In this document: piece after piece, positions 43,586 to 56,990 of the stretch
How the letters are laid out: each line of letters begins with the position of its first letter
Position numbering within the stretch: the first letter of the stretch is position 1
The notes under the pieces: generated by a model
The model's database searches: none
The model's input: only the letters and a program-made list of their open reading frames with translations
What the model was told of the DNA's origin: nothing
Position numbers and translations under genes: made by a program
Sequence record: OQ708376.1
Direction: 5' to 3' (one strand)
Length of the DNA: 64,000 nucleotides
Source: Escherichia phage vB_EcoM_CRJP21

Positions 43586-44570
43586 TTAAACACAAGTAGA
43601 CAGGGGAAGCTCCTAGTGAACAACCTTTATGTACAGGCGAATTGTTAAAATTCAGCCTGGACAAATGCGATCACTAGGATTCTCCCCAGGCTAAACCCCG
43701 TAATCATAGGTAGTCATAAGTAATCATATATAAACATTTATATGAGCACCGTAGAATCACAGAATGATTATATATGATTCAGTACTGATTAGTATAGACA
43801 AGAATTCTCAAGAATGCACGGGAAGGATTCAGTACTGATATGCCACTAAGTAGGCAGAGGAAGTCTGCCGTACTTTGTAGTTTCCAAGCTCCTTTTCCAT
43901 TTTTCAAATTACATCAAATGTAATCAAAAGTAATCACGCAATGATTAGTACTGAATTATTACTTTCACCTTAATTACAATTACCCTTTTACCCTTCGGGG
44001 TAAAATTCAATTACCCCTTGAGGCTCCAGCAAAAAGTTGGTTAGTACTCCATCCTAAATCTCGATCCTAAAAATTTTGGAGTACCTATGAAATAAAAGTT
44101 GGATCTTCGAAAGTTGAAATTTACGTTGGGACGTTTATGATTTGTGGGATATAATGATGTTTGTAGACGGGTAGTTCTCAAGAATATCAGTACTGAAAGA
44201 TGAAAGAAAGTTATTGACTTTATGATTCAGTACTGTATAATGTTCTACATAGGGTGATGAGTTGCTGCGAACAATTCATTTACTCTACCTCCTGTCGTGA
44301 GACAGTACAGAAAAGATAGTTCCTCCTGTGGTGGTACATCTTTTTGAACCTCATATGAAAATCGTAATAACAGTACTGATATTAACAGAATGGTGTCAGT
44401 ACTGATTTTAATCTAAAGCATTATGCCACCAGCACAAGCTGGTGGATTCCCTCTAACAGTATTCAGTACTACATGATGGTCTTCATCCTCCTAGGGTAAC
44501 ATAGTGAGGGCTATGATGGCAGTACTGAATACTCCCTTTCAAAAGATAGATCTATGGTATAGTACTGACG

Positions 44571-44759
44571 GATTTTGGGCGTAGTTACCCTGGATGGATT
44601 TTGGGCGTAGATATGTCTAGCCCTCCAGAAGTCTGGAAGTAAAGATGGCTATCCATCTAGACGGCTAAACGGCTAGATTTCTGGATGGCTGGATGGCTAG
44701 ACGTTTGGACGGCTAAACGGCTAGATGGTTACACGTCTGGAAGTATAGACGGCTAAATC
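44571..44759. repeat. iteron-like short direct repeat cluster (GGATTTTGGGCGTAG x2; ACGGCTAAACGGCTAGAT x2; GGATGGCT x2; GTCTGGAAGTA x2)
   Basis: direct repeats read in ORF-free region. Confidence 0.7.
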
Positions 44760-45384
44760 AAAATTTTATTTTGTTTTTTCCAATAGTTCCCCTACCGCGT
44801 GGGGATAGTTTCCCCGCAGTATCTGGTGTTAGATTTTTCTGAATCTGGAATCATTATCTTATAAACTGGGGGCAATGTCAACGGCCTGGCCGGATATTTT
44901 TAAAAATTTTTTCAGTACTGAATTTTGGGCGTAACTATGCACCCGGTGGGCTTGAGTCTTTCTCGACTTGATGGAACTATTATACAGTACTGGAAAAATA
45001 AAGCAATACCCTGGAAGCAAAAAAGTTTTAATTAATTTGCTTGCTATCCTGGGCCGGACTATGGTACTATATTTCAGTACTGAGAAAGTGCGTTTACCTG
45101 CTAGGGTGCGGGAGTGTATCCTTTTTTTATATCTTGAATTTTGGACGGATCTTCCCACCCCCTGGGGTATCCGCTTTCTCGCGTCTATGTAGTAATTATA
45201 CGCTTTTTCAGGATCAAGTCAATACCTAAAAACAAAATAATTGAAAATAATTTAACGCGTTTAAACGGCCTGTAAAGCCCTGGAATGATTGGAATGGTGC
45301 AAATGTATAGCTTATGTGTATTAATGCGTTAGAATGCGTCTGAGGACGTTTTACGGGGTATAGGGATGATTTAGTGGATTGATT

Positions 45385-45471
45385 CAGTACTGAATAATAG
45401 TACTCCTATATAGAAAGATAGTTCCCCTGGATGATTGCAGTACTGAATAATAGTACTCCTATATAGAAAGA
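45385..45471. repeat. 34 bp direct repeat x2 (CAGTACTGAATAATAGTACTCCTATATAGAAAGA) separated by 19 bp
   Basis: two identical copies at 45385-45418 and 45438-45471. Confidence 0.8.
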
Positions 45472-45502
45472 AAACTATTTTAAAAGTATTTGTAGAAAGT
45501 AC

Positions 45503-45561
45503 TTGCACCGTACTGATAAAAGCGTATAATGTTTTACATCGAGAGCGGGAACACTTCCCGC
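45503..45561 (+). promoter_or_regulatory. promoter (TTGCAC-N16-TATAAT) + 5' stem-loop AGCGGGAAC-N-TTCCCGCT
   Basis: first of about 25 promoter/5'-hairpin cassettes. Confidence 0.6.
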
Positions 45562-45585
45562 TACACATTAAGAGAGATTAAAACG

Positions 45586-45948
45586 ATGGCGACTCAAATC
45601 AATAAAATCATGCTTAACCTGGTAAACTTCCGCGATGAGATGAAAGGTCTTCCGGCTGAAACTGTAAAAATTCACATTGCAGCTTATCGGGAACTTATTG
45701 CAATGTTGCCGCTTAAGCGTGAACAATACGCCGCTACTTTGATGCTGGATTCAATGATCCATATAATGATCTCAAATGATTTGACGATGGTTTATCAGTA
45801 TATGGGCGAAAATTTCGCGGTGTGTAGTAAGCCAGTACCAGGGATGGCAACAACTGAGGAATTGCACGGCTTAAACTTAAAACAAGATGCATGGGATAAT
45901 ATGCCTCGTTTCCTGGTATGGGCTGACAGTGGCAAAATTTACAAATAA
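45586..45948 (+). CDS. hypothetical protein (120 aa)
   Basis: ORF track 45529-45948; ATG 45586 downstream of promoter and hairpin. Confidence 0.55.
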   Translation: MATQINKIMLNLVNFRDEMKGLPAETVKIHIAAYRELIAMLPLKREQYAATLMLDSMIHIMISNDLTMVYQYMGENFAVCSKPVPGMATTEELHGLNLKQDAWDNMPRFLVWADSGKIYK

Positions 45949-45962
45949 GTTTAATAAAGTAC

Positions 45963-46021
45963 TTGCAAACTATGTTTAATGGCGTATAATGTTTTACATC
46001 AGGTGGGGAATAGTTCCCCAC
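45963..46021 (+). promoter_or_regulatory. promoter TTGCAA-N16-TATAAT + 5' stem-loop GTGGGGAA-TAGT-TCCCCAC
   Basis: consensus hexamers; hairpin at predicted +5 to +25. Confidence 0.6.
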
Positions 46022-46041
46022 TATATAAGAGGATTAAAAAA

Positions 46042-46281
46042 ATGGCTAAATCAAAAATGTTCTTAGGTCACAAAAACAAAACTCATTGGAATGTAAGCCT
46101 TTGGATTAATAACGATGAGGGATTGTATCGGTTGGCCCAGGACTTTATTAACGATAGCACTAATCGCAATGATGCGGCCCGTCATATGATGTTATTTTTA
46201 GAACAGACTGGACAAGATAAAACACCGGACGGATTCAAATATAGCACTACTGCGATCCGTGCGGCGATGGTTGGAATGTAA
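46042..46281 (+). CDS. hypothetical protein (79 aa)
   Basis: ATG 46042 after GAGGAT. Confidence 0.55.
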   Translation: MAKSKMFLGHKNKTHWNVSLWINNDEGLYRLAQDFINDSTNRNDAARHMMLFLEQTGQDKTPDGFKYSTTAIRAAMVGM

Positions 46282-46291
46282 TAGAATTTAT

Positions 46292-46330
46292 TTAAAGTAC
46301 TATCATTTTTTTGCGATAGTACTTTATAAT
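46292..46330 (+). promoter_or_regulatory. palindrome-containing promoter-like element (AAAGTACTATC-N10-GATAGTACTTT then TATAAT)
   Basis: inverted repeat + -10 hexamer; no good -35. Confidence 0.4.
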
Positions 46331-46367
46331 AGTGTTTTATTCATACACCAACGATAAGGGCAACAGC

Positions 46368-46634
46368 ATGAAAATTAAGTATTTTGCGACGCGTGAACAA
46401 GCTCGGATCGCCGCACGCCAGGACGGGGCAACGTTTAAAGATATGGGCGTACAATCGGAACGTGGTAAACGTTGGGCCATTGTAAAGCGTAGTACCGCCA
46501 GATCATTACAGTACTGGTTAGCGGCCTTAAAAAGTCCCGATAGTGTATCGCGTCGAGTGGTAGAAATAAAGCTCGACCGAAAGGGCAACCGCGTGACCGT
46601 GTACCGTACTAAAAAGATTGCAGTACTTGAATAA
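46368..46634 (+). CDS. hypothetical protein (88 aa); paralog of 58345-58740
   Basis: MKIKYFATREQARIAARQDGATFKDMG vs MITKFYATREAARIVAREEGAAFKDMG. Confidence 0.6.
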   Translation: MKIKYFATREQARIAARQDGATFKDMGVQSERGKRWAIVKRSTARSLQYWLAALKSPDSVSRRVVEIKLDRKGNRVTVYRTKKIAVLE

Positions 46635-46642
46635 AAAGTACT

Positions 46643-46700
46643 TGCAAACTATGTTTAATGGCGTATAATGTTTTACATCGAGAGCGGGAACTCTTCCCGC
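46643..46700 (+). promoter_or_regulatory. promoter TTGCAA-N15-TATAAT + 5' stem-loop GCGGGAAC-N-TTCCCGC
   Basis: near-identical to cassette at 45963. Confidence 0.6.
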
Positions 46701-46721
46701 CTATAACCTGGAGTAATGAAA

Positions 46722-46952
46722 ATGACTAATATGTATATGACTGAAGTTAAAACCGTAAAAGATACTACCACGAATAAAACTACTTACTTACAGCGGATCT
46801 GTGGTGTATGGCAACGTATCAGCAAATCAAAGTACTTTAAATTAACATCATATGCAAACCGTTCGGATTCATTCAGTACTGAAATAAAAGGTAATAAAGT
46901 ACACCAATACGGCACTTATTATTATTATAGCCTGGACGCGATTGCAGTATAA
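46722..46952 (+). CDS. hypothetical protein (76 aa)
   Basis: ORF track 46716-46952; ATG 46722 has better spacing from GGAG. Confidence 0.5.
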   Translation: MTNMYMTEVKTVKDTTTNKTTYLQRICGVWQRISKSKYFKLTSYANRSDSFSTEIKGNKVHQYGTYYYYSLDAIAV

Positions 46953-47202
46953 GCAGTTTACAAATCTTTACAATTGCCGGTATTGACTTATTTTGTCAGT
47001 ACTGGCATAATGTATTCATTGGCAGATAAGCCGTAGCCCATAGGGTGCGGGAGTGTATCTATAGAAAAATTAGTTTAGTATAGTTACAATTGTGCACCCG
47101 GTGGGTTAGCTGTTGTCATGGGGTATATTATACCAGTACTTGATAATGCTGTCAATACTTTTTTTTTACTATTCAGTACTGAAAACTATTTTTAAAAAGT
47201 AC

Positions 47203-47348
47203 TTGCAAACTATGTTTAAAGGCGTATAATGTTTTACATCAGGACGGGGAACGAAATAAGTAACTTCCCGTTAAGTAGCCCAGGAGTAAGGCACACGAAA
47301 AACTCCCCTGATAAAATAGTTTGACAAATGTTTTTAAAAGCGTATAAT
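47203..47348 (+). promoter_or_regulatory. tandem promoters (TTGCAA..TATAAT and TTGACA..TATAAT) flanking about 80 nt structured leader
   Basis: two consensus promoters about 118 bp apart; leader holds CGGGGAAC...CCCCG-type hairpins; second copy at 57123-57267. Confidence 0.55.
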
Positions 47349-47380
47349 ACTTACATCAACTACTGAATGAGGGTTACAAA

Positions 47381-47992
47381 ATGAAAACTATCACTACTAC
47401 TACTTATGTTATGGCTTTTTCTGAATTGAACGCAGAACAACAAACGTCAGCTATCGAACTGGTTCGGGAACGTGAAAAAAACTCAAACGACAATTATTTT
47501 TCTGAAAGTGAAATTGAATACTATAAAGAAACAGTACTACCGGAATATGGCATTAATGACGCTGAAATACAATTCAGTGGTTTTTGGTCCCAGGGTGACG
47601 GTGCATCAATCAGTACTGACCACGTTGACGCAGTGAAGTTTTTACGCAAGGTAAGAGCATTAACTAAGTATCGCTCAATCCGTCACTTGCTGAATGAAGA
47701 TGATTTGGCGATGAGTGTAAAACGTTCGCACTCCCACTACTCGCATGAGAATACTGTAAGCGGGTACATTGAATCGGCTTACACTGATTTAACCGCAAAA
47801 CAAGAAACGTTAGTTAATGAGCTTGAGGAACTACTCACTGAAACTATTCGTGAATTGTCCCGCAAGTTGTACCGTGATTTAGAGAATGCATATGAGGATC
47901 AATTCACTACTGAAAACATTACGGCACTGATTGAGGGTAACGAATATCAATTCAATGTTATTGATGGCGTAGTAGAATCAATCGAATATTAA
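47381..47992 (+). CDS. hypothetical protein (203 aa)
   Basis: ORF after tandem promoter element; GAGGGT RBS. Confidence 0.6.
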   Translation: MKTITTTTYVMAFSELNAEQQTSAIELVREREKNSNDNYFSESEIEYYKETVLPEYGINDAEIQFSGFWSQGDGASISTDHVDAVKFLRKVRALTKYRSIRHLLNEDDLAMSVKRSHSHYSHENTVSGYIESAYTDLTAKQETLVNELEELLTETIRELSRKLYRDLENAYEDQFTTENITALIEGNEYQFNVIDGVVESIEY

Positions 47993-48005
47993 TTTAAAAA
48001 GTACT

Positions 48006-48075
48006 TGCAAACTAAGTTTAAAAGCGTATAATACTTTATATCGAGAGCGGGAATAGTTCCCGCTACTAATGAGGA
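48006..48075 (+). promoter_or_regulatory. promoter TTGCAA..TATAAT + 5' stem-loop AGCGGGAATAGTTCCCGCT
   Basis: cassette architecture. Confidence 0.6.
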
Positions 48076-48084
48076 ATACTACAA

Positions 48085-48249
48085 ATGAATACTTTTACCT
48101 TCGCTCAATTGAACGCCCTGGATGTATTGTCTGATGCTTTGCGGGATGCAACTGAAAGCGGTTTATTTGACAATGTTGACATTCACCCTGATGTAATTAA
48201 TAATTTTTGTGATGCTATCGCAGAAGTACTGGAAGATCTAAAAAAATAA
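48085..48249 (+). CDS. hypothetical acidic protein (54 aa)
   Basis: GAGGAAT RBS after promoter/hairpin cassette; below track cutoff. Confidence 0.45.
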   Translation: MNTFTFAQLNALDVLSDALRDATESGLFDNVDIHPDVINNFCDAIAEVLEDLKK

Positions 48250-48258
48250 TAGAAAGTA

Positions 48259-48319
48259 CTTGCAATTAGTTTTCAGTACTGTATAATGGTTTACATCAAA
48301 GGGAGAAATGGTTCTCCCT
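48259..48319 (+). promoter_or_regulatory. promoter TTGCAA-N18-TATAAT + 5' stem-loop GGGAGAA-ATGG-TTCTCCC
   Basis: cassette architecture. Confidence 0.6.
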
Positions 48320-48337
48320 GGTAATGAGGAAAATACA

Positions 48338-48559
48338 ATGGCTAATATCACTACTCTTTCCCAACTGGAAGCACTGGTTAAATCTATGCGGGAACATGCT
48401 GACAAAATCGGCGTACAAGATCCAGCCGTTTGCTTCTGCGACGAATTGAATGATGATACCCTGGTAATAGCAGAAGTCCAGGACGTTTCTAACTATTCCT
48501 CGCGTTACACTGGCGGCGTAGCAAATAAAGGTGACTTCTGTTTATACCTTACAAAATAA
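48338..48559 (+). CDS. hypothetical protein (73 aa)
   Basis: ORF track 48308-48559; ATG 48338 after GAGGAAAAT. Confidence 0.55.
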   Translation: MANITTLSQLEALVKSMREHADKIGVQDPAVCFCDELNDDTLVIAEVQDVSNYSSRYTGGVANKGDFCLYLTK

Positions 48560-48563
48560 CAAC

Positions 48564-48593
48564 GCGGGGAGATAATAACTCCCCGTTACTTTT
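48564..48593 (+). terminator. intrinsic terminator (CGGGGAG-N-CTCCCCG + T-run)
   Basis: hairpin + TTACTTTTT. Confidence 0.6.
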
Positions 48594-48727
48594 TCAGTAC
48601 TGAATCATTTAATAGACGGATCTCGGCACCCGGTGGGTTAGTGACTGTTTCGTCTTGATGTAGTAATTATGCCAGTACTGGATGCACTTGTCAACAATTA
48701 TTTTCCAAATACTTTTTATTAAAATAC

Positions 48728-48783
48728 TTGCAATTAGTTTTTAAACGCGTATAATGTTTTGCATAGGGGGAGCGGTTCCCCTG
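48728..48783 (+). promoter_or_regulatory. promoter TTGCAA..TATAAT + 5' G-rich stem-loop
   Basis: cassette architecture. Confidence 0.55.
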
Positions 48784-48802
48784 GTAACTAAGGAATAATA
48801 AA

Positions 48803-49039
48803 ATGCTTGAACAAATCAAATCAACGTCTTCGAATGTAACGGGAACGGTAGCACACTTTACTAGTGATGAATCGCGGGGCGTTCCCTATTGTGCTGTACA
48901 TGTAAACACTGAGGGTAACTACTGGTTTACGGTTTACGGATCATATTCATTTGGACGGCCTGGACATCAAAAAATTCTGGATAAAGTACAACCAACGGGT
49001 AAAAATATCACTGCCGAAATGTTTTATAAAAAATCATAA
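48803..49039 (+). CDS. hypothetical protein (78 aa)
   Basis: AAGGAAT RBS. Confidence 0.55.
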   Translation: MLEQIKSTSSNVTGTVAHFTSDESRGVPYCAVHVNTEGNYWFTVYGSYSFGRPGHQKILDKVQPTGKNITAEMFYKKS

Positions 49040-49044
49040 AGTAC

Positions 49045-49103
49045 TTGCAATTAGTTTTTAGTACTGTATAATATTTTACATCGCAAGGGGAAACGGTTTC
49101 CCC
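49045..49103 (+). promoter_or_regulatory. promoter TTGCAA-N16-TATAAT + 5' stem-loop GGGGAAAC-GG-TTTCCCC
   Basis: cassette architecture. Confidence 0.6.
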
Positions 49104-49123
49104 TGGTAACTAAGGATAATCAA

Positions 49124-49423
49124 ATGAAAATTGCAATCATCGCCCTGGCTTTATCTGTTTCCTCTTTCGCTGTTAATGCGTCATTAGATGTAAGTAGTGA
49201 AAAATTCATTCAGTGCACTGTTGCAATGACCGATGAAAGAACTGGCGAGATTGTATTAAAGGATTTAGAGATCCAGCCGGAAGCATTTAAAAACGGCCCG
49301 TTCCATGAAGAAGACGAAAACGGTAGCACGACAATTTATTATGATGCCAGTACTAAACGCGGTTCGGTCACTGTAATGGATACCGAGAAAGTAACTCATA
49401 CCGGCGTTATTAATTGCCGTTGA
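49124..49423 (+). CDS. secreted protein (signal peptide)
   Basis: N-terminus MKIAIIALALSVSSFAVNAS. Confidence 0.55.
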   Translation: MKIAIIALALSVSSFAVNASLDVSSEKFIQCTVAMTDERTGEIVLKDLEIQPEAFKNGPFHEEDENGSTTIYYDASTKRGSVTVMDTEKVTHTGVINCR

Positions 49424-49444
49424 TAGATACTACGGGGTAACATC

Positions 49445-49675
49445 ATGACTAAGCGAATTGTTTTACTTAACGAAAGCAGTACTACACAACTACTTAACGC
49501 CGTGCATTATGATATTGAAACGAGCGTTAATCTTATCAGTACTGTAGTTCTGTTGGACACTGGAAAGGTAGCCAATGATAAAGCGATTGCAGGTATACTA
49601 ACGGATCTTGTGCCTGGTAGCAGTGCACCAATAACGTTAAATGGTAAAGTGTTTAATATTTTACTCACTGATTAA
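49445..49675 (+). CDS. hypothetical protein (76 aa)
   Basis: ORF in track; GGGG-rich RBS. Confidence 0.45.
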   Translation: MTKRIVLLNESSTTQLLNAVHYDIETSVNLISTVVLLDTGKVANDKAIAGILTDLVPGSSAPITLNGKVFNILLTD

Positions 49676-49681
49676 GTACAT

Positions 49682-49709
49682 AGCCCACCTGGTGGGCTTT
49701 TTTGTTTTT
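49682..49709 (+). terminator. intrinsic terminator (AGCCCACC-TGGT-GGGCT + T-run)
   Basis: hairpin + T6GT5. Confidence 0.7.
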
Positions 49710-49757
49710 GTAGTATCGTAGTACTGAGATACTTTGAAAATAGTTTTAAAAAAGTAG

Positions 49758-49785
49758 TTGACATTACCACAGAAAAGCGTAGAAT
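49758..49785 (+). promoter_or_regulatory. promoter TTGACA-N16-TAGAAT with about 120 nt leader
   Basis: hexamers read; long leader before ATG 49909. Confidence 0.5.
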
Positions 49786-49908
49786 GTATTACATCAAGAC
49801 GGGGAGCACTAAGTAGACCGCCAGTAAGTCGAACGAAAAACTGGACACGTCGAGAAAACTTTGATACACTAATAAACGTAAACTAAACTTTAATTGAGGA
49901 TTTATAAA

Positions 49909-50391
49909 ATGGCTAATGTAAAATCATTCATCAAAGCACTGGTAGCAAATGAAACTAACGTCGCGGCTGAGATCCTGGCTGAACTGGATAACGATACCAT
50001 GAAAGCGGTACGCAACAATTTTAACATTGCGTACAGTGAAGCTAAAGAACTGCAAGCCAAAAAGGTAGCAGAACTGGAAGAACAGAAAAAAGCCCGTGAA
50101 GCAGAACTACAAGCAACAATTGAAAGTATTCAGGCGGCAGTGTCTGGATTGGATCTGGAAGTGGTTGTAGAAATGGCACATAAAGCCCTGGCGGTTAAGT
50201 ACGGTGAAGATAAGCCGGAATCTAAACCTAAAAAATGGATTCAAGAACGTGTTACTGTAGTACTTGATAACGGTGAAGAACATTTGATTCCTGTACGCGG
50301 TAACTGCATTGCGGTAGTACTGGACGCTATCAAAGAAAGCGGTATGACTCGCGAGGAATGGATCGAAGCTCATCGCAAAGTTGAAGCATAA
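49909..50391 (+). CDS. hypothetical protein (160 aa)
   Basis: ORF track 49894-50391; ATG 49909 after GAGGAT. Confidence 0.55.
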   Translation: MANVKSFIKALVANETNVAAEILAELDNDTMKAVRNNFNIAYSEAKELQAKKVAELEEQKKAREAELQATIESIQAAVSGLDLEVVVEMAHKALAVKYGEDKPESKPKKWIQERVTVVLDNGEEHLIPVRGNCIAVVLDAIKESGMTREEWIEAHRKVEA

Positions 50392-50412
50392 CAATTAAAG
50401 TACTGAATCACT

Positions 50413-50439
50413 AGCCCACCTTAAACAGTGGGCTTTTTT
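50413..50439 (+). terminator. intrinsic terminator (AGCCCAC-N-GTGGGCT + T6)
   Basis: hairpin + T-run after gene stop. Confidence 0.7.
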
Positions 50440-50593
50440 GTGTCTGTAGTATTCCAGTCCACCAGCACCGCCTAGAATCGATTCTAACGCATTAAACTGA
50501 TTATCTGATACATCGCCCTAGCTGGTGGCGTTAAGGTCGTTAGAATGCGATTGAGAGCGTTTAAAGTATTTTGCAAAAAGTAATAAAAAGTAC

Positions 50594-50655
50594 TTGCACG
50601 ATTAAGAGATTAGCGTATAATGTTTTACATCGAGAGGGGGAAACGGTTCTCCTTC
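50594..50655 (+). promoter_or_regulatory. promoter TTGCAC..TATAAT + 5' stem-loop
   Basis: cassette architecture. Confidence 0.55.
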
Positions 50656-50676
50656 CAAATCAAAGGAATCAAAACA

Positions 50677-50904
50677 ATGGCTATTATCATTACTCGCGTA
50701 TCTGGTACTACTGGCAACGAACAAGTAGTTGCAGTCATTACTAACAAGGCAGGTGCGGAATTGCAAAATGCAATGAATACCTGGGCCGTTAATGAGTTCG
50801 GTCAGTGGGCAAGTGTAGCATACATTGAAACCTATCAAGTGCCGTCGATTAGTTTAACTGATTTGGGCGTTGAGCGTATCCTTTGCCTGGATGAATTAAA
50901 TTAA
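50677..50904 (+). CDS. hypothetical protein (75 aa)
   Basis: ORF track 50620-50904; ATG 50677 after AAGGAAT. Confidence 0.55.
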   Translation: MAIIITRVSGTTGNEQVVAVITNKAGAELQNAMNTWAVNEFGQWASVAYIETYQVPSISLTDLGVERILCLDELN

Positions 50905-50913
50905 AAAAAGTAC

Positions 50914-50973
50914 TTGCAAAGTAAATCGAATAAAGTATAATACATTACATCAAGGGGAGAAATGATTCTCCCC
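50914..50973 (+). promoter_or_regulatory. promoter TTGCAA-N16-TATAAT + 5' stem-loop GGGGAGAA-ATGA-TTCTCCCC
   Basis: cassette architecture. Confidence 0.6.
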
Positions 50974-50990
50974 ACTACAAGGAAACTAAA

Positions 50991-51203
50991 ATGGCTATCA
51001 TTACTAAAATCAAAGTTAACAAGACTATCGTTAAACTGGCAGAAGTGAAAGAAGGTTATAAAGTATCTTGGTGCGGTATGTATCGGACGTTCGCAGATAT
51101 AGATGATGCGATCAATTATTACAGTGACACGGTTAAAAACTTTGTTCGTGCTGATGTGGTTATGGCAGTGGCAACATATAAAGCAGCGAAAGAAAGTAAG
51201 TAA
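50991..51203 (+). CDS. hypothetical protein (70 aa)
   Basis: AAGGAAAC RBS. Confidence 0.55.
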   Translation: MAIITKIKVNKTIVKLAEVKEGYKVSWCGMYRTFADIDDAINYYSDTVKNFVRADVVMAVATYKAAKESK

Positions 51204-51226
51204 AAATATTATCACAGTACTATTGA

Positions 51227-51261
51227 CATAGTTTGATAGTACTGGCATAATAGATTTTATC
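51227..51261 (+). promoter_or_regulatory. promoter with embedded palindrome AGTACTAT-TGACATAGTTTG-ATAGTACT (operator-like), -10 CATAAT
   Basis: 8 bp inverted arms flank -35 TTGACA and spacer; the same or a closely related palindrome architecture recurs at 46292, 53833, 54093, 58262 and 61888. Confidence 0.55.
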
Positions 51262-51294
51262 AAGACGACACATATTAATTTAAGGAATACTAAA

Positions 51295-51618
51295 ATGGCT
51301 AAAACTATCATCAACACCGTTTCCCTGGCTGCAATCCATGCAATCAATGTTGACGGTAAACGTTGGACTGATTCATATGGCAATACTTATCATTCTTGTC
51401 ATGTAAGCGTTGAACTGGATAACGGCTTGAATGATCTGGCGGTTGAATCATTTACTTATGGCTATGAGGATGCATATCAACAAACGGCGGTATCACTCTT
51501 AAAGGAATCAGTAGACGGGCTTGATACTGTTGAAACCTCCCTCTATCGTTTGTGCAATGATCTTAATATCCCGTTGCATTGTACTGTACAGGATGTAAAA
51601 CGTAAAAAAGATCTTTAA
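51295..51618 (+). CDS. hypothetical protein (107 aa); paralog of 57926-58249
   Basis: shared W/RWTD-x-GNTYHSC, FTYGY, DVKRKKD segments. Confidence 0.6.
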   Translation: MAKTIINTVSLAAIHAINVDGKRWTDSYGNTYHSCHVSVELDNGLNDLAVESFTYGYEDAYQQTAVSLLKESVDGLDTVETSLYRLCNDLNIPLHCTVQDVKRKKDL

Positions 51619-51698
51619 TTAGCTTTACTTTATGCAGATACTTTGATATAGTGTCTGCATAGGGGAAAGAAATTAAATCAACTTAAGAGGAAAGTAAA

Positions 51699-51968
51699 AT
51701 GAAAAATATCAGTACTTTAATCGATGCAGGTACACATGTTCGTCGGTCTATGGTTGCAACCAGTTCTACAAAACAAGTAGCGAGCGGTTATCTTGTATTT
51801 GTGCACGATGGAAAACTCCTGGAACGTTCAATCAATTTTGATGTTAAAAACAATTGCCGTTTTATTATCTTTCGCCGTGAACAATATAAAATTGATTTGC
51901 CAGCGAAGCCCATTAGCGGGGCGTACAACGTGCAATCATTGTTTGAGCGTCAACCTTACACCTATTAA
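51699..51968 (+). CDS. hypothetical protein (89 aa)
   Basis: AGAGGAAAGT RBS. Confidence 0.5.
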   Translation: MKNISTLIDAGTHVRRSMVATSSTKQVASGYLVFVHDGKLLERSINFDVKNNCRFIIFRREQYKIDLPAKPISGAYNVQSLFERQPYTY

Positions 51969-52019
51969 TCAAAACATCGTTAGCGGTCGATTTAGGCCGC
52001 TTATATTGGGGATTATACC

Positions 52020-52292
52020 ATGAACGTTAATCAAGTACTGAATGAGATCGAAAGCATCATTAAACCGATGAAGCGTACTGATGCTATGTTAACACCGGAA
52101 GAATGCCGCCTTTATGAGCGTTACAGCGTCGAACAAGTCCAGGCAATGGCTATGGCTACCCCAGCCGTTTCACCGCCTGAGAATGCGTTACAGGACGTTA
52201 CAGGGGATTATATCATTAATCCAGTACTAGGGAAGATGACTGCAATCACCGAAGATCAAAAAGACTACTTAAGCCAGTACTTAAAAGGTTAA
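52020..52292 (+). CDS. hypothetical protein (90 aa)
   Basis: ORF in track. Confidence 0.5.
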   Translation: MNVNQVLNEIESIIKPMKRTDAMLTPEECRLYERYSVEQVQAMAMATPAVSPPENALQDVTGDYIINPVLGKMTAITEDQKDYLSQYLKG

Positions 52293-52297
52293 TTAAT

Positions 52298-52507
52298 ATG
52301 CTTACTGTACAGGATAAGATCGACATCTTAAAGGTTAATATGTATGTGATTGATGCCGTACCTGGTAAAGTATTTGCATACGATGATAGTACTGTAAGCG
52401 ATTTCTACTATAGCCAGGACGTGGGGGATCTTTCTGTACAGTCGGTTATTGAAAACGTAGTTAATGCAGCGTATGAGCATTTACTTTCAAATAGTACTTG
52501 CAATTAG
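52298..52507 (+). CDS. hypothetical protein (69 aa)
   Basis: ORF in track; 3' end overlaps next promoter. Confidence 0.45.
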   Translation: MLTVQDKIDILKVNMYVIDAVPGKVFAYDDSTVSDFYYSQDVGDLSVQSVIENVVNAAYEHLLSNSTCN

Positions 52508-52557
52508 TTTTTAAACGCGTATAATGTTTTACATGAAGGGGAGAAATGATTCTCCCC
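52498..52557 (+). promoter_or_regulatory. promoter TTGCAA-N16-TATAAT + 5' stem-loop GGGGAGAA-ATGA-TTCTCCCC
   Basis: cassette architecture. Confidence 0.6.
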
Positions 52558-52575
52558 AATAACAGGAGAAACAAA

Positions 52576-52728
52576 ATGAAACAATACAACGCTCGGTTTG
52601 ATGTTACTATCGGTAACGGCAAAGGTCAATTCTCTTTCAGTACTCGCCGCAGTTATACAGAAAACTTCCTGCGTAATTGTGCACTGACCGCCGCTCAAAT
52701 TAAACACTATTTTCAGGCTAAAAAATGA
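52576..52728 (+). CDS. hypothetical basic protein (50 aa)
   Basis: ORF track 52546-52728; ATG 52576 after AGGAGAAAC. Confidence 0.45.
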   Translation: MKQYNARFDVTIGNGKGQFSFSTRRSYTENFLRNCALTAAQIKHYFQAKK

Positions 52729-52814
52729 AATCATTAGCTTATTACAGTTCGGCCCTGGTCGGTGCATTGATCGCGGCATTGTTAGTAACCTATCTATTCT
52801 TTATGGTGATTTAA
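52725..52814 (+). CDS. putative membrane micro-protein (29 aa)
   Basis: ATGA overlap with upstream stop; single hydrophobic helix; speculative. Confidence 0.25.
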   Translation: MKSLAYYSSALVGALIAALLVTYLFFMVI

Positions 52815-52958
52815 ATGAATCCAACAGGTTTAAACTATAAAAGTTGTTCTGCATTTACGAAAGCAAATAAAGCGAATGCACGTAAAGCGAAAGTACAGGA
52901 ATACATCAAGCAAGGCATGACGCGAAAAGCGGCGATTATAAAAGCTAAAAATAAATGA
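52815..52958 (+). CDS. putative basic micro-protein (47 aa)
   Basis: ATG directly after upstream stop; ends at terminator element; speculative. Confidence 0.25.
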   Translation: MNPTGLNYKSCSAFTKANKANARKAKVQEYIKQGMTRKAAIIKAKNK

Positions 52959-52963
52959 AAAAA

Positions 52964-52996
52964 GTGGTTGACTTCGGTCAGCCATTTTGTTATTAT
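52964..52996 (+). terminator. bifunctional terminator/promoter element (variant)
   Basis: GGTTGAC-TTCG-GTCAGCC; TATTAT downstream. Confidence 0.55.
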
Positions 52997-53089
52997 ATAT
53001 TCATTGAGAGATAGCTCACTAGCCCACAGGGTGCAGGAGTGTATCTATTGTATGAGTATTGAGTACTGAAAACTATTTTTAAAAAGTAC

Positions 53090-53148
53090 TTGCAAACTAT
53101 CTCAATAAGCGTATAATGTTTTACATCGAAAGGGGAAACGGTTTCCCC
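53090..53148 (+). promoter_or_regulatory. promoter TTGCAA-N16-TATAAT + 5' stem-loop GGGGAAAC-GG-TTTCCCC
   Basis: cassette architecture. Confidence 0.6.
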
Positions 53149-53168
53149 TGGTAATAAGGAAACAAATC

Positions 53169-53510
53169 ATGACTATCTCAATTGCTCAATCTAACTTTGA
53201 AAATGAAATCATCGCCCAGGCACTGCGTTTAAATGATGGTCGGGCCGAAATTAATTACGGTTTCAATTCAGGCGGTTGCGAAAAATATCAGTACTTTGTA
53301 ACGGCTGATGGCGGTGTCCTGGGTATCAATACAGTTATTGTAAACATCCAAAAAATTAATTTCAATGATCCAGACGATAGCCAGTTTTACATCACTGGCG
53401 TAGACGTGAACTATGAGGATGACTCACTAACTGATGATCACACTGGCGAGCGGTTAGAAAGTGCATACGGTGAAGATGATTATCAGTCCGGTCCAGAAGA
53501 TTTCGAATAA
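53169..53510 (+). CDS. hypothetical acidic protein (113 aa)
   Basis: AAGGAAAC RBS. Confidence 0.55.
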   Translation: MTISIAQSNFENEIIAQALRLNDGRAEINYGFNSGGCEKYQYFVTADGGVLGINTVIVNIQKINFNDPDDSQFYITGVDVNYEDDSLTDDHTGERLESAYGEDDYQSGPEDFE

Positions 53511-53524
53511 TATAAAAAAATAGT

Positions 53525-53584
53525 TTGACAATAGATTATAGTACTGTATAATAGTTTACATCAAGGGGAGAAAAACTTCTCCCC
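53525..53584 (+). promoter_or_regulatory. promoter TTGACA-N16-TGTATAAT + 5' stem-loop
   Basis: cassette architecture. Confidence 0.6.
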
Positions 53585-53606
53585 ACTAACAGAGAGAGAA
53601 AACAAA

Positions 53607-53819
53607 ATGGCTAATATCCGGTCGAAATTAAAAAATGCAAAACAAGTTTTATTTTCAGATCATGAATACTTTAATAAAGATATTACAGGAGTTACAAGTA
53701 TCAAGGAAGTAAAAGAAAAAACCGGCGTTTTGTGTGATGTGCGATTAGTTGGAACATTTGGGAATAACGTGCTATATCGCTGCGGTGATTACAATTTTAC
53801 ACTGACTATCATTAACTAA
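53607..53819 (+). CDS. hypothetical protein (70 aa)
   Basis: AGAGAGAGA RBS-like. Confidence 0.5.
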   Translation: MANIRSKLKNAKQVLFSDHEYFNKDITGVTSIKEVKEKTGVLCDVRLVGTFGNNVLYRCGDYNFTLTIIN

Positions 53820-53832
53820 AAATATTATCACA

Positions 53833-53867
53833 GTACTATTGACATAGTTTGATAGTACTGACATAAT
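53833..53867 (+). promoter_or_regulatory. palindrome-containing promoter (AGTACTATTGACATAGTTTGATAGTACT)
   Basis: same architecture as 51227. Confidence 0.55.
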
Positions 53868-53901
53868 AACTTTTATCAACTACACTATTAAGGAATTAAA
53901 A

Positions 53902-54081
53902 ATGGCTATCATCGCAAAAACTGAAATCGTTGGTCTGGATTCTATCATCATGACGTTTGAAGATCAAAAAGGTATGTATGTAGTTTCATATGGTGATTAT
54001 GTTCGGGAGTATGAAACGGTAGACGAAGCCTTTGAAAGTTACATTCGCCAGGTGAATAAAGCATACGACGATTACCGCTAA
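53902..54081 (+). CDS. hypothetical protein (59 aa)
   Basis: AAGGAAT RBS; below track cutoff. Confidence 0.45.
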   Translation: MAIIAKTEIVGLDSIIMTFEDQKGMYVVSYGDYVREYETVDEAFESYIRQVNKAYDDYR

Positions 54082-54092
54082 AATATATTACC

Positions 54093-54136
54093 AGTACTAT
54101 TAAAGATATTGACAACGTTTGATAGTACTGTATAAT
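54093..54136 (+). promoter_or_regulatory. palindrome-containing promoter (AGTACTAT..TTGACA..ATAGTACTG TATAAT)
   Basis: same architecture as 51227. Confidence 0.55.
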
Positions 54137-54180
54137 AAGTTTTATCAACAGTAGTTAACTTAACCTAAGAGAGAAATAAA

Positions 54181-54324
54181 ATGATCGCACTGGATTCATT
54201 CATCGACGCAGTACTGGCAAAAACTGGCGAGGATCTGACCGCAGAACAATACGCAATGATCGAGCAATGCCAGCAAGACGGTAAATCGGTGAAAGATACT
54301 GTTAAGATTATCCGCAAGATGTAA
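54181..54324 (+). CDS. hypothetical protein (47 aa)
   Basis: AGAGAGAAAT RBS-like; below track cutoff. Confidence 0.4.
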   Translation: MIALDSFIDAVLAKTGEDLTAEQYAMIEQCQQDGKSVKDTVKIIRKM

Positions 54325-54330
54325 GATTAT

Positions 54331-54362
54331 AGCCCACTGGTTAACGCTGGTGGGCTTTAATT
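54331..54362 (+). terminator. terminator-like hairpin AGCCCACTGG-N-CCAGCGGGCT-like with weak T tract
   Basis: inverted repeat read; T-run weak. Confidence 0.4.
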
Positions 54363-54429
54363 CATTACCCTATACAATGCCAGTACTAAACCGTTTATCT
54401 CGTTAGAATGCGTTACAGGACGTTTAACA

Positions 54430-54627
54430 ATGATTAGCATGAAATCAGTACAAAAACAAATAGAAACATTATCAAAAATTAAACGTAAACAGTACTCCTT
54501 AGAATATACAATCAATGGTAACTATCATCTAATGAAAGAGAATAATTTTATAGTCATTGATGAATCATTGCAAATCATTAGTATAGTACTGAAAGCATTA
54601 ATCAATGACAGAAAAAAATTAAAATAA
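54430..54627 (+). CDS. hypothetical protein (65 aa)
   Basis: ORF in track; AT-rich. Confidence 0.4.
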   Translation: MISMKSVQKQIETLSKIKRKQYSLEYTINGNYHLMKENNFIVIDESLQIISIVLKALINDRKKLK

Positions 54628-54631
54628 ACTA

Positions 54632-54660
54632 TTGACAATATCATCAAGTACTGGCATAAT
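54632..54660 (+). promoter_or_regulatory. promoter TTGACA-N17-CATAAT
   Basis: hexamers read; followed by about 300 nt without a + strand ORF. Confidence 0.5.
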
Positions 54661-54958
54661 ACTTACATCAAGACGAGAACGTCACTAACCCATAGGGTGC
54701 ACAAATGTAACTGTATAATATTGATCAAAAAATGATCTGATCAATACTTGATCAATTTGCGTAAAGTAGTATAATTCTATGCAGTTGGTTAGACGAAAGG
54801 TTATGATTAGTAGTGCAAGTGTATAAAAATTTTCATGGTGTATCGTTTCGCACATATGGGGATGAATATGTGGTATCATGTGGATTGGAAAAAGTAAGAA
54901 CAAGTAATATTATTGTCGCATTACAGTACTATAGTATTTTTATAATGAGGTTAAAATA

Positions 54959-55216
54959 ATGGCTGTAGGATTCGCGAAAGATGGGGCCGAACAAGACGAG
55001 ATTAACGCAGTGATTCAGGCCGCCGTTAACCACGCTAGAAAGCAAATTAACGCACAAATAGAATCACTGATACATTGCCTCGACTGCGGCGATATAATCC
55101 CTGAGAATCGACGCCAGGCCGTTAAGGGATGTAAGTACTGCATAACTTGCCAGGAGGATCATGATAGTACTTTTAAACGTCCCCCGCGTAATTGTTGGCA
55201 TAGATCTATGAGATAA
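54959..55216 (+). CDS. DksA/TraR family C4-type zinc-finger protein
   Basis: CLDCGDIIPENRRQAVKGCKYCITCQ matches TraR-type C-x2-C-x17-C-x2-C pattern with conserved IP..RR. Confidence 0.6.
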   Translation: MAVGFAKDGAEQDEINAVIQAAVNHARKQINAQIESLIHCLDCGDIIPENRRQAVKGCKYCITCQEDHDSTFKRPPRNCWHRSMR

Positions 55217-55222
55217 AAAGTA

Positions 55223-55250
55223 TTGACAGTACTGAAAGATAGTGTATAAT
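55223..55250 (+). promoter_or_regulatory. promoter TTGACA-N16-TATAAT
   Basis: consensus hexamers. Confidence 0.55.
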
Positions 55251-55279
55251 GTTTTATATCTTAACTGAGGATAGAAATC

Positions 55280-55636
55280 ATGGGAATACAACATATCACG
55301 CGTACTACTGACAATGGCGAGATCACTGGTTATCAAGTACAGGGCAAAGTAGCACAATTGCAGTACTGGTTTGTTAAACGTGGAATCATTGCACCGGATC
55401 TTGATTATGACCGTGTAGCGTTTATTGATTCTCTTTATGTTGATCCTGATAGTCGGGGCAATGGTGAAGGTAACGAATTAATGAATGCCTTTATTGATGC
55501 CGCCGATGATTCAGATTGTATCATTTTAGAATGCGATACGGGAGAAGATAACGCCTTTAATCTTAAAGAATGGTACGAAGGTTTCGGATTCGAGGTACTG
55601 ATCGATAGTGAATATCCTATCATGATTTTATCATAG
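55280..55636 (+). CDS. GNAT-like N-acetyltransferase (putative)
   Basis: YVDPDSRGNGEGNELM and NAFNLKEWYEGFGFE resemble GNAT motifs A and B; motif-level only. Confidence 0.45.
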   Translation: MGIQHITRTTDNGEITGYQVQGKVAQLQYWFVKRGIIAPDLDYDRVAFIDSLYVDPDSRGNGEGNELMNAFIDAADDSDCIILECDTGEDNAFNLKEWYEGFGFEVLIDSEYPIMILS

Positions 55637-55638
55637 TA

Positions 55639-55696
55639 CTTGCATTTAGTTTTCAGTAGTGTTATAGTACTTACATCAAGGGGAAACATCTTCCCC
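55639..55696 (+). promoter_or_regulatory. promoter-like + 5' stem-loop GGGGAAACATCTTCCCC
   Basis: weaker -10 (TATAGT). Confidence 0.45.
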
Positions 55697-55708
55697 TACT
55701 AAGAGGAA

Positions 55709-55903
55709 ATGAAAATGGAAAACTTATCAAGTATTTTAGTACAAGATGATTTCGGTAATCCTGGAAGTGCTATCATTGTTCGGGGTAATAAAGCAACATT
55801 TGTTATTGCTGGTGGACCTGTACAGCGTAGCATTAAAAACAATGCCGTTACTATTAATAATGTACGCTATCGCTTAGATAAAGAATTGATTCATAAACTG
55901 TAA
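55709..55903 (+). CDS. hypothetical protein (64 aa)
   Basis: GAGGAAAT RBS. Confidence 0.5.
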   Translation: MKMENLSSILVQDDFGNPGSAIIVRGNKATFVIAGGPVQRSIKNNAVTINNVRYRLDKELIHKL

Positions 55904-55930
55904 TATTAATTTAATAGAGGATAACAATAA

Positions 55931-56254
55931 ATGTACATTCATACTACTATCACAAAGGAAGTCCGTTGCCAGTTCGAAAGTATTCCGGGCGTATGTTTCA
56001 TCACTGGTACGTTTTCCCCTGGTGATCGTGATAATCCAGTACTGTTACAATTACGCCATCCATCATGGGATAAAGCATTTGATCTACCGTTGAATGAATT
56101 CGCAACTACTGCTGAAAAGTACATTAAAAATATTCGCGAGAATGATCGACTATTCATTAATGCTTTTAGTGATTCCGCGTTAAGCGAGATCCACGGTGTA
56201 TTGGTTGCAATCATGGAATCAATGGAGAAAACTAAATTCAAACAAGGTGAATAA
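55931..56254 (+). CDS. hypothetical protein (107 aa)
   Basis: AGAGGAT RBS. Confidence 0.55.
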   Translation: MYIHTTITKEVRCQFESIPGVCFITGTFSPGDRDNPVLLQLRHPSWDKAFDLPLNEFATTAEKYIKNIRENDRLFINAFSDSALSEIHGVLVAIMESMEKTKFKQGE

Positions 56255-56260
56255 AAACTA

Positions 56261-56320: not shown

Positions 56321-56337
56321 ACTGAGAGGAAAGAAAA

Positions 56338-56550: not shown

Positions 56551-56567
56551 TATAAGGAGTACAGCTT

Positions 56568-56976: not shown

Positions 56977-56990
56977 AAATAATTGAAAAA

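Follow-up and report, generated by a model that had tools for sequence, protein, structure and literature searches.

The junction of unique DNA with the 20-kb direct terminal repeat of Escherichia phage vB_EcoM_CRJP21: a probable end-cleavage site and non-coding terminal hub

We analyzed a stretch of approx. 1.9 kb (positions 43590-45530) of Escherichia phage vB_EcoM_CRJP21 (CRJP21), which lies in a window of 64,000 nt of sequence record OQ708376.1; coordinates refer to this window unless another phage is named. The original prediction, made from the letters of the sequence, had described the stretch as free of genes and rich in repeats, and had proposed for it the role of a replication origin, of a packaging or terminal-repeat junction, or of a site cluster for a phage DNA-binding protein. 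Our results indicate that the region is very probably the junction of the genome's unique part with the right 20-kb direct terminal repeat (DTR), and that it comprises an end-cleavage site followed by a 1.7-kb non-coding "terminal hub". The elements of the hub are listed in Table 1, and their functions are those that we infer.

The genome end and its cleavage site

The stretch matched 41 phage records (80-99% identity), all of them PBECO4/121Q/G17-type jumbo coliphages (Asteriusvirus) and Salmonella-host isolates, and in records longer than approx. 365 kb the match was always located 19-21 kb from one end. Comparison with related genomes, which had been suggested as a check, placed the boundary at 43848|43849: this is the inner boundary of the exact 20,668-bp direct terminal repeat of phage G17, and the first base of five further records (from Finland, Poland, the Philippines, Bangladesh, and one without a stated origin) corresponds to position 43849, which makes six independent records in all. 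One record starting at the equivalent of 43849 carries the annotation "Direct Terminal Repeats 1..21525". The last base of the window (...GGGCGGGTAACCT|) coincides with the second repeat boundary, as is also the case for fEgEco12, vB_Ec-M-J and G17. Since both boundaries match those of the relatives, positions 43849-64000 represent the right repeat, and the window the last 64 kb of the linear record.

The ends of these relatives have been determined by PhageTerm and restriction mapping (fEgEco12; PMC13070987), by PhageTerm (Sharanji; PMC11895373) and from read coverage (the G17 repeat; PMC6563267). Judged from the sequence comparisons, the mature genome end of CRJP21 is at 43849 and the other end of the repeat is at 64000. 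Among the roles originally proposed, that of a packaging or terminal-repeat junction is therefore the one borne out, by the six records, by the published mapping of the ends of relatives, and by a cut-site sequence that is invariant across two genera.

The 25-mer spanning the cut occurs only once in the window. The ends of Klebsiella phage Muenster, a member of Alcyoneusvirus, were determined independently (PhageTerm), and its left boundary reads ...TTCAGTACTGATATGCCACTA|AGT...; the 21 nt outside the repeat are identical to those of CRJP21 and the same bond is cut. Alcyoneusvirus is another genus, with an average nucleotide identity of approx. 30% to fEgEco12-type phages (PMC13070987). In a database search with a 35-nt junction query, the 25-mer ATTCAGTACTGATATGCCACTAAGT was found at 100% identity in RaK2, K64-1, KP13-7, RCIP0023 and phiKp_21. 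The right boundaries, read from outside to inside, are GAAGTCGCTA|AGGTTACC in CRJP21 and AAAAGTGCTA|AGCCTAAT in Muenster. The motif G(N)CTA^AG is thus common to all four boundaries examined in the two genera, and its orientation is inverted between the two ends of the repeat. On this evidence from aligned sequences, a conserved cis-acting cleavage sequence is present across the cut.

The inverted symmetry is what would be predicted by a model in which opposite strands are nicked and then copied by strand displacement. In concatemers, a terminase or an associated nickase would nick opposite strands at the two boundaries (a Watson/T7-type model), and the repeat would then be duplicated via strand-displacement synthesis. 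The fold-back hairpin that begins at the first nucleotide of the repeat may assist in this step; by analogy with the hairpin ends of T7, it may have a role in end processing.

Concatemer junctions of T7 and T3 have short repeat arrays flanking the terminal repeat, a hairpin-end intermediate, and early promoters A1-A3 near the left end. The junction of CRJP21 resembles them in having exact ends, short repeat arrays beside the boundary, a sequence capable of forming a hairpin at the end, and inward host-RNA-polymerase promoters a few hundred bp in. It differs in the length of the repeat (160 bp in T7/T3 versus 20 kb here), and also in that the units of the T7 array differ in sequence.

Two sets of phased GTAATCA-type repeats flank the cut site, since one of them lies outside the DTR and its partner inside; they may form a protein-binding flank of this site. 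Further outside, the tail of the unique region (43590-43700) is strongly structured (DNA fold of -21.8 kcal/mol, z -5.0), and its inverted repeat probably serves the upstream operon as a terminator or an insulator. The preceding DNA (39535-43585) is a tight tandem array of approx. 20 small genes on the + strand (60-77 amino acids [aa] each), the last of which matches phrog_11711; the array ends 260 bp before the repeat boundary, and its coding strand is rich in C and A (GC skew of -0.1 to -0.23), whereas the remaining + strand genes of the window show the opposite bias. At its far end the repeat contains, within the last 95 nt (63905-64000), a stem-loop (AATCCCTT...AAGGGATT) but no large non-coding hub, so that the complexity of its two boundaries differs greatly.

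The existence and coordinates of the DTR have already been published for close relatives, so the core identity of the region is known and is not new. The ends of the Rak2-like jumbo phages (G17, Sharanji, fEgEco12 and vB_Ec-M-J, as well as Muenster and CBB) are like that of CRJP21: the same end to the nucleotide and a repeat of approx. 20-21 kb with early genes within. The published accounts consulted give only the length and existence of these repeats, whereas the hub, the cut-site sequence, the bias of Chi sites and an 8-bp array are features of the present analysis. In the literature on these repeats, and on Chi and metboxes in phages, we found no description of the hub elements. Apparently undescribed are the sequence of the cut site and the fact that it is invariant between genera, the double-Chi hairpin, the oriented excess of Chi over the repeat, and the anatomy of the hub. 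The same holds for the MetJ-operator-like array, for its reappearance close to the ends of T5-like and T7-like phages, and for the motifs that are partly in common with the T5 injection-stop region. This is, to all appearances, the first explicit cut-site sequence for the approx. 20-kb repeats of Rak2-like jumbo phages, and it should aid in orienting and annotating the many permuted records. Placement at a genome end also turns an odd hub of repeats into a set of defined and testable cis elements.

Organization of the terminal hub

The claim that the stretch 43590-45530 holds no convincing open reading frame (ORF) stood up to scrutiny. The longest ORF is a GTG-started one of 99 aa on the minus strand, and none of the six ORFs of 42-99 aa found a match in PHROG and Pfam scans; both flanking genes match PHROGs (phrog_11711 on the left, phrog_7352 on the right). 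In the curated relatives G17, PBECO4, 121Q, phAPEC6, SP27 and A4 the stretch is unannotated, except for a terminator placed by G17 at the Chi hairpin, and in pipeline-annotated records it is filled with "hypothetical proteins" of 30-70 aa.

Table 1. Elements of the genome-end junction of CRJP21 and comparable arrays in other phages (z, folding relative to shuffled sequences; distances are from the genome end at 43849)
Feature	Position	Strand	Remarks
Structured tail of unique region, 23-nt imperfect inverted repeat (43597-43619 / 43671-43693)	43590..43700	+	after last small gene
10-bp phased GTAATCA-type repeats	43700..43742		outside repeat, -149 to -107
End-cleavage site ATTCAGTACTGATATGCCACTA^AGT	43827..43851	+	cut between 43848 and 43849
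Right DTR, 20,152 bp	43849..64000		approx. 60 small early genes, all on + strand; ends ...GGGCGGGTAACCT
Fold-back hairpin AGTAGGCAGA-ggaag-TCTGCC-g-TACT	43849..43874	+	begins at repeat nucleotide 1; -6.9 kcal/mol, z -3.8
Partner GTAATCA set	43904-43936		inside DTR, +55 to +88; period 10
GC stem-loop TTTTACCC-TTCG-GGGTAAAA	43986..44005	+	z -5.3
Rightward sigma-70 promoter-like sites	44114-44141, 44126-44155, 44214-44241	+	11/12 match; +265 to +392
Double-Chi hairpin CCACCAGC-acaa-GCTGGTGG	44426..44445		one RecBCD Chi per orientation; 577 bp from end; z -4.1
GGATTTTGGGCGTAG x2	44571..44613	+	+722 to +764; related copies 44920-44934, 45136-45150
14 consecutive 8-bp boxes	44643..44754		+794 to +905; the "iterons" of the original prediction
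T-rich tract, then overlapping GC hairpins	44786..44822	+	z -1.8, weak; position kept in Muenster and Munch, just past their arrays
Leftward promoter-like sites	44881-44853 (TTGACA-N17-GATAAT), 45008-44980 (CAGTACTGTATAAT type), 45222-45195	-	approx. +1000 to +1370
Cross-genus conserved block	44979..45201		contains a leftward promoter-like site and its 5' region
T5-like block AATGCGTTAGAATGCGTCTGAGGACGTTTTACGG	45323..45362	+	+1474; matches T5 9267-9305
Two 44-nt direct repeats (34 nt perfect)	45375..45471	+	+1526; each with CAGTACTG and a second AGTACT 13 bp away
First canonical early promoter-like site AAAGTACTTGCAC-N16-TATAATGTTTTACATC and 5' stem-loop	45498..45566	+	+1649
First DTR gene (phrog_7352)	45586-45948	+	starts at +1737
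Array of AhSzq-1 (Aeromonas)	3969-4192		28 boxes; next to A1/A2 genes
Array of Pontus (Vibrio)	1500-1619		15 boxes
Array of pVp-1 (Vibrio)	3000-3071		9 boxes
Array of PGT2 (T7-like Ermolevavirus, E. coli)	38-109 nt from record start		9 boxes

The hub is conserved at least as well as the flanking coding DNA in seven Asteriusvirus genomes, and the order of its modules is the same in Muenster and in Salmonella phage Munch. Conservation across genera is most evident in the block at 44979-45201, which is 72% identical to Muenster over 235 nt and is also present in RaK2, K64-1 and phiKp_21, and partly in Munch.

Several structural features named in the original prediction were confirmed. The stem-loops near 43995 and 44425 fold better than shuffled sequences, the 34-bp direct repeat (45385-45418 / 45438-45471) is perfect, and the short direct repeats resolve into the periodic array of 8-bp boxes and the repeats of the GGATTTTGGGCGTAG type. 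A likeness of GGATTTTGGG to the direct repeat A of T5 (GGATTTTGGGG) was considered and dismissed, as it is not significant for a single 10-mer. The boundary in base composition also held: the GC content amounts to 34.1% on the left side as against 38.3% on the right side, and the GC skew changes sign near 44 kb.

Putative sigma-70 promoters occur in both orientations. The rightward site at 44214-44241 belongs to the early-promoter family (TTGACT-N16-TATAAT GTTCTACAT, with CAGTACTG abutting the -10 hexamer), and no ORF follows it for 1.3 kb; the rightward promoter segment is 94% identical to the promoter of the first DTR gene. On the opposite strand, the site at 45222-45195 (TTGACT-N16-TATAAT) is followed by the downstream sequence typical of the early family, and the leftward sites converge on the 8-bp array and the genome end. 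Beyond the hub, a uniform early-promoter family of approx. 17-20 sites extends over 45498-63100 (AAAAGTACTTGCA-N16/17-(C)GTATAATGTTTTACATC, i.e. AAAAGTACTTGCA-N16/17-TATAATGTTTTACATC), in each case the predicted transcript has a GC stem-loop at its 5' end, and a separate copy of the promoter is present for almost all small genes of the repeat.

Promoters of the early family without an ORF behind them, together with several stable stem-loops, are what would be expected if the region were merely a transcribed leader or a locus of non-coding RNA. We regard this as highly improbable: no Rfam family was detected in the region, even at a permissive E=1, the first gene is provided with a separate promoter, 50 nt upstream, and the region contains a physical genome end with a cut site conserved across genera. 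No tRNA gene was found in the 64-kb window by ARAGORN.

The same promoters bear on the proposal of a replication origin, which could be of the T4 oriF/oriG-like type (R-loop) or of the iteron type, given the convergent early promoters, AT-rich tracts and short repeats. Promoters without ORFs, AT-rich tracts (44760-44790, 44895-44915 and 45230-45255) and the minimum of the cumulative GC skew near 44 kb would all fit an origin. The repeat unit is, however, of 8 bp and resembles a repressor operator (it fits the MetJ operator model, see below), as opposed to iterons of 17-22 bp, and the hub has no DnaA boxes. Of the features expected for an iteron-type origin (several direct repeats of 17-22 bp, an AT-rich element and often DnaA boxes), only the AT-rich tracts were found. 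As for the GC-skew check, a sign change and a cumulative minimum do exist near 44 kb, but they coincide with the repeat boundary and with the + strand block of small genes of atypical composition, and elsewhere in the window the skew follows the orientation of the genes. The origin thus gained no positive support, and we consider it improbable.

Chi sites and AGTACT palindromes

The double-Chi hairpin of the hub is part of a wider bias. On the + strand of the repeat, GCTGGTGG occurs nine times versus 0.16 expected (p 2e-13), an excess of more than 50-fold, and the contexts of these sites, coding as well as non-coding, are unrelated; of CCACCAGC there are two copies (0.065 expected), one of them being that in the hub hairpin. 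The 44-kb unique part contains two copies of GCTGGTGG and none of CCACCAGC. The same pattern is present in G17, and the Muenster repeat (1-20030) contains seven co-oriented Chi sites (0.12 expected) and one in the opposite orientation, with none in the next 25 kb. Munch has a double-Chi hairpin as well (484-503), with the loop TTAA instead.

The majority orientation is the one recognized by RecBCD entering from the far end of the repeat (64000), and the hub Chi at 44426 is the first that would be met by RecBCD entering from the hub end. The octamers are exact and oriented for RecBCD entering from a DNA end, and the hosts are E. coli and Klebsiella, as would be expected of Chi recombination hotspots. 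After injection, the hub hairpin and the nine co-oriented Chi sites of the repeat would turn RecBCD from a nuclease into a RecA loader, and the converted enzyme would promote recombination between the repeats, yielding a circle or a concatemer, as has been proposed for P1. In that phage, which is the nearest precedent that we found, Chi sites are clustered in or near the terminal redundancy (Subramaniam and Smith, as quoted in PMC12315714). P1 and Chi-rich lambdoid phages resemble CRJP21 in an excess of GCTGGTGG in or near terminally redundant DNA, oriented for RecBCD arriving from an end; P1 is unlike CRJP21 in belonging to another lineage, and here the ends are exact and non-permuted and one Chi pair forms a hairpin. 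No report of Chi clustering in jumbo phages was found in the literature searched. The oriented excess, kept in two genera, suggests that RecBCD is exploited at phage ends rather than only inhibited.

Two smaller elements of the repeat also contain Chi. In a second small non-coding element (50459-50570), two divergent Chi sites (CCACCAGC at 50459 and GCTGGTGG at 50521) enclose an inverted AATGCGTTAGAAT; behind them lies the 12-mer CGTTAGAATGCG (50538), which is the same as in the T5-like block of the hub; a third copy of CGTTAGAATGCG, at 54401, lies 55 nt past another Chi (element 54346-54412).

Several points weigh against the interpretation of the region as a genome-end junction with a dedicated hub. 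The terminus was placed by alignment with relatives of 93-99% identity, and cleavage in this group may proceed either by nicks or by a double-strand cut. The Chi hairpin also resembles a terminator stem, in line with the annotation in G17, and Muenster lacks the hairpin. The promoters of the hub are consensus matches only.

The original prediction had also pointed to a dense cluster of AGTACT. The region does contain 19 copies, but the density is not local: no hexamer of the window is over-represented more strongly than AGTACT (280 copies versus 21 expected, 13-fold, z 56), and its density in the hub (9.8/kb) equals that in the other non-coding DNA of the repeat (10.8/kb). Only the longer palindromes are concentrated in the hub. 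For CAGTACTG, i.e. (T)CAGTACTG(A), the density is 6.2/kb in the hub versus 1.8/kb in the other non-coding DNA of the repeat (3.5-fold), and half of the 14 window copies of TCAGTACTGA lie in the hub (8-fold denser than in that DNA). AGTACT occurs approximately every 230 bp; within genes, which may be on either strand, it is found in each of the three codon phases (approx. 3/kb inside genes of the unique region). Its spacing is near Poisson, with W-C-AGTACT-G-W as the preferred flanks. Muenster shows the excess as well (7.8/kb within its repeat and 2.3/kb beyond), as does Munch, whereas T5 does not. In some early promoters of CRJP21, Muenster and Munch a second AGTACT abuts the -10 hexamer (CAGTACTGTATAAT), but promoter-linked copies account for less than 10% of the sites.

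The CAGTACTG palindromes would be sites for some factor, and one copy lies 11 bp from the cut. It is possible, though we hold it only tentatively, that the hub is a platform for a phage protein recognizing (T)CAGTACTG(A), e.g. the small terminase subunit or an early-gene regulator, and that the palindrome cluster is a pac-like recognition region or a regulatory sink. The higher density of CAGTACTG and TCAGTACTGA in the hub, the location of one CAGTACTG copy within the invariant 25-mer, and the AGTACT abutting the -35 and -10 hexamers of early promoters in three genera are consistent with such a role. On the other side, a factor binding AGTACT cannot be end-specific, because the hexamer recurs so frequently, also inside genes; the right repeat boundary of the genus has no copy within 70 nt, and some close relatives differ just upstream of 43837. 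The proposed site cluster for a phage DNA-binding protein thus remains conceivable for CAGTACTG, whereas AGTACT itself is spread over the genome and the lineage, and the 8-bp array is better suited to a host protein. The 13-fold excess of AGTACT, an excess that is kept across genera, points to a DNA-binding or DNA-marking system in this lineage.

We found nothing relevant on AGTACT or CAGTACTG in jumbo phages in the literature. Three known regulators were considered as ligands of CAGTACTG and rejected. The spacings of 13, 16, 20 and 22 bp yield neither CTG-N10-CAG nor GTACT-N8-AGTAC, which eliminates LexA and TrpR. The site of SlmA is GTGAGTACTCAC, and the flanks found here are opposite to those needed: only 10% of the sites have G at -1, and only 5% have C at +1.

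The 8-bp array and the likeness to T5-like phages

The central element of the hub is an array with a strict 8-bp period, whose units (AGACGGCT, AAACGGCT, AGATTTCT, GGATGGCT, AGACGTTT, ACACGTCT and similar) are joined by CTAG junctions. For its scoring we used the half-metbox matrix that Augustus and Spicer published in 2011 (PMC3228920) and their thresholds, according to which a MetJ operator consists of at least two adjacent 8-bp boxes, each reaching at least 1/4 of the consensus score (3.15 bits), with a total at least equal to that of the consensus (12.58 bits). All 14 adjacent boxes exceeded the threshold (3.8-10.7 bits each), giving a total of 102.8 bits and a putative operator by the published definition. 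The longest run elsewhere in the window was of two boxes, and of three boxes in shuffled sequences, while in control DNA (5 kb of E. coli K-12) only the known operators were found (metJ/metB, 4 boxes, 31 bits; metF, 4 boxes, 25 bits). For an 8-bp tandem repeat, we calculated a chance of approx. 0.003 that its consensus would agree with AGACGTCT in at least 7 of the 8 positions in one register or another. A BLAST search with the array against all complete E. coli genomes returned no match to a met operator, a database of this size being too large for short degenerate repeats.

Compared with the MetJ operators of E. coli (PMC3228920), the array shares the 8-bp period, a similar unit (AGAYGKCT versus the consensus AGACGTCT), the CTAG junctions and a score above threshold for every box. 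It is unlike them in the number of boxes (14 versus 2-5), the lack of overlap with a promoter (the nearest promoter-like sites are 90-400 bp away), the preference for G at position 6, and the location at a phage genome end.

Related arrays were found in other phages. Those passing the MetJ test occur in the non-coding DNA of the T5-like Demerecviridae AhSzq-1, Pontus and pVp-1, and another lies close to the record start of the T7-like phage PGT2 (Table 1); by BLAST, such arrays were also located in GAP32 and in jumbo phages of Erwinia, Serratia and Yersinia, approx. 700-800 bp from where the record starts. Nearly all hosts of the array-bearing phages are gamma-proteobacteria of groups that possess MetJ. 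The array unit is common to unrelated phage families, which is explained more parsimoniously by a ligand from the host than by one from the phage, and the most likely ligand, as suggested by the fit to the operator model, is host MetJ in complex with S-adenosylmethionine (MetJ-SAM). The array would recruit it as a long cooperative filament between the convergent early-type promoters, and this filament would serve as a roadblock or as a repressor sponge. A search of the literature for metboxes in phage genomes yielded nothing relevant.

Some observations detract from the assignment to MetJ. G is present at position 6 in 9 of the 14 boxes, a base found there in only approx. 10% of natural half-boxes, and because of this the ligand may be another protein, or the binding may be weak. 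The metbox arrays of different phage families may stem from transfer, in which case they are not independent evidence. Moreover, a jumbo phage listed for Xanthomonas, XbC2, matches parts of the hub near its record start (54-819), and to our knowledge this genus lacks MetJ; if XbC2 carries a metbox-type array in a host without MetJ, the assignment would be weakened.

With MetJ as the candidate ligand, the array might be a sponge for a host regulator, which would titrate MetJ (or, in relatives, Fur) as the phage DNA replicates, its position at the end being incidental. Genes of methionine/SAM synthesis (or of iron uptake) would then be derepressed, to the benefit of a very large phage. The array has 14 boxes versus 4-5 in the strongest host operators, each copy of the repeat carries one array, and relatives carry metbox or Fur-box-like arrays at the same position. 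We nevertheless think this explanation unlikely, as the arrays recur beside the genome ends in three phage families, which argues for an end-related role, and as position 6 of the boxes departs from the MetJ consensus.

The setting of the hub recalls "Repeat Region 3" of T5. That region, an untranslated tract of 1.2 kb made up of repeats and palindromes, occupies the inner end of the T5 left terminal repeat, continues for 270 bp into the adjoining unique DNA and holds the injection stop signal (Davison, bioRxiv 10.1101/866236). Both regions are ORF-free, rich in repeats and palindromes, and located at the inner end of a long repeat with early genes, the CRJP21 hub covering 1.7 kb plus 260 bp outside; the topology matches when the genome is placed in the G17 orientation, in which the early genes point away from the hub. 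The T5 region and the injection stop are reportedly treated by Heusterspreute (1987) and Wang (2005) as well. T5-like Aeromonas and Vibrio phages carry metbox arrays in the corresponding non-coding regions, and the Muenster array that occupies the position of the CRJP21 metbox array matches the DRC / palindrome E-I array of T5, including an identical 24-mer. A block of 36-40 nt appears to be shared by CRJP21 and T5 (pairwise E 1e-4); outside the genus, its database-wide matches are to T5-like phages only (87.5% over 40 nt), and its exact 12-mer CGTTAGAATGCG is the one that recurs at 50538 and 54401.

A strictly collinear homology was rejected, because the shared motifs are in mirrored order while the strand is retained. 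The hub contains neither DnaA boxes (TTWTNCACA) nor an IRD'-spacer-IRC' inverted repeat with a 52-bp spacer, in which T5 has its paired DnaA boxes. The largest ORF of the repeat is of approx. 200 aa, so that none is of the size of A1, and A1/A2 are not annotated in G17 or Muenster, although no homology search for A1/A2 was run. Unlike T5, CRJP21 is a myovirus with T4-like replication genes. The hub would thus work in the setting of Repeat Region 3 and shares part of its vocabulary of motifs; since these are not collinear, we do not class it as a member of that element family.

By analogy with T5, the hub could be the counterpart of Repeat Region 3 in a two-step transfer: the far end of the repeat would enter first, approx. 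20 kb of early genes would be expressed, and transfer would pause where host proteins load on the arrays (MetJ here; Fur-like and DnaA boxes in T5). This would be consistent with the common topology, the shared block, the metbox arrays of the T5-like Aeromonas and Vibrio phages, and the Muenster array, whose T5 match is where the T5 shear point maps; the orientation of Chi also suggests that the far end is the one most exposed to RecBCD. The missing DnaA boxes and A1/A2-sized genes, the mirrored order of the motifs, and the fact that two-step transfer has never been reported in this lineage make such an injection stop doubtful. The junction with an end-cleavage site remains the favored reading of the region, and the 8-bp array links the jumbo phages to the region of the T5-like phages that holds the injection stop, the mechanism of which has awaited explanation since the 1980s, with MetJ-SAM as a concrete candidate ligand.

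A broader and quite tentative proposal is that phages with long exact repeats from three families (Rak2-like jumbo myoviruses, T5-like Demerecviridae and some T7-like Autographiviridae) place operator arrays of host repressors beside their genome ends: MetJ boxes in CRJP21 and in Aeromonas/Vibrio T5-like phages, and Fur-box-like sequences in T5 and in Klebsiella/Salmonella jumbo phages. The arrays would recruit cooperative filaments of host proteins. These would be either roadblocks to DNA entry or packaging that sense a metabolite, or sponges through which host regulons become derepressed. If the roadblock version were true, the injection stop signal of T5 would be an array for a host repressor.

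Within the CRJP21 window, Fur boxes are at chance level (5 versus 4.2 expected), with none in the hub. Clustered arrays of AATGAGAATCATT-type palindromes, which match the Fur-box consensus at 14-17 of 19 positions, are present in Muenster (780-910, 1058-1096 and 1300-1325), Munch (690-800) and T5 (5470-5640). Palindrome D of T5 (TACTGTATAAATATACAGTA) resembles a LexA box, going by the SOS-box consensus.

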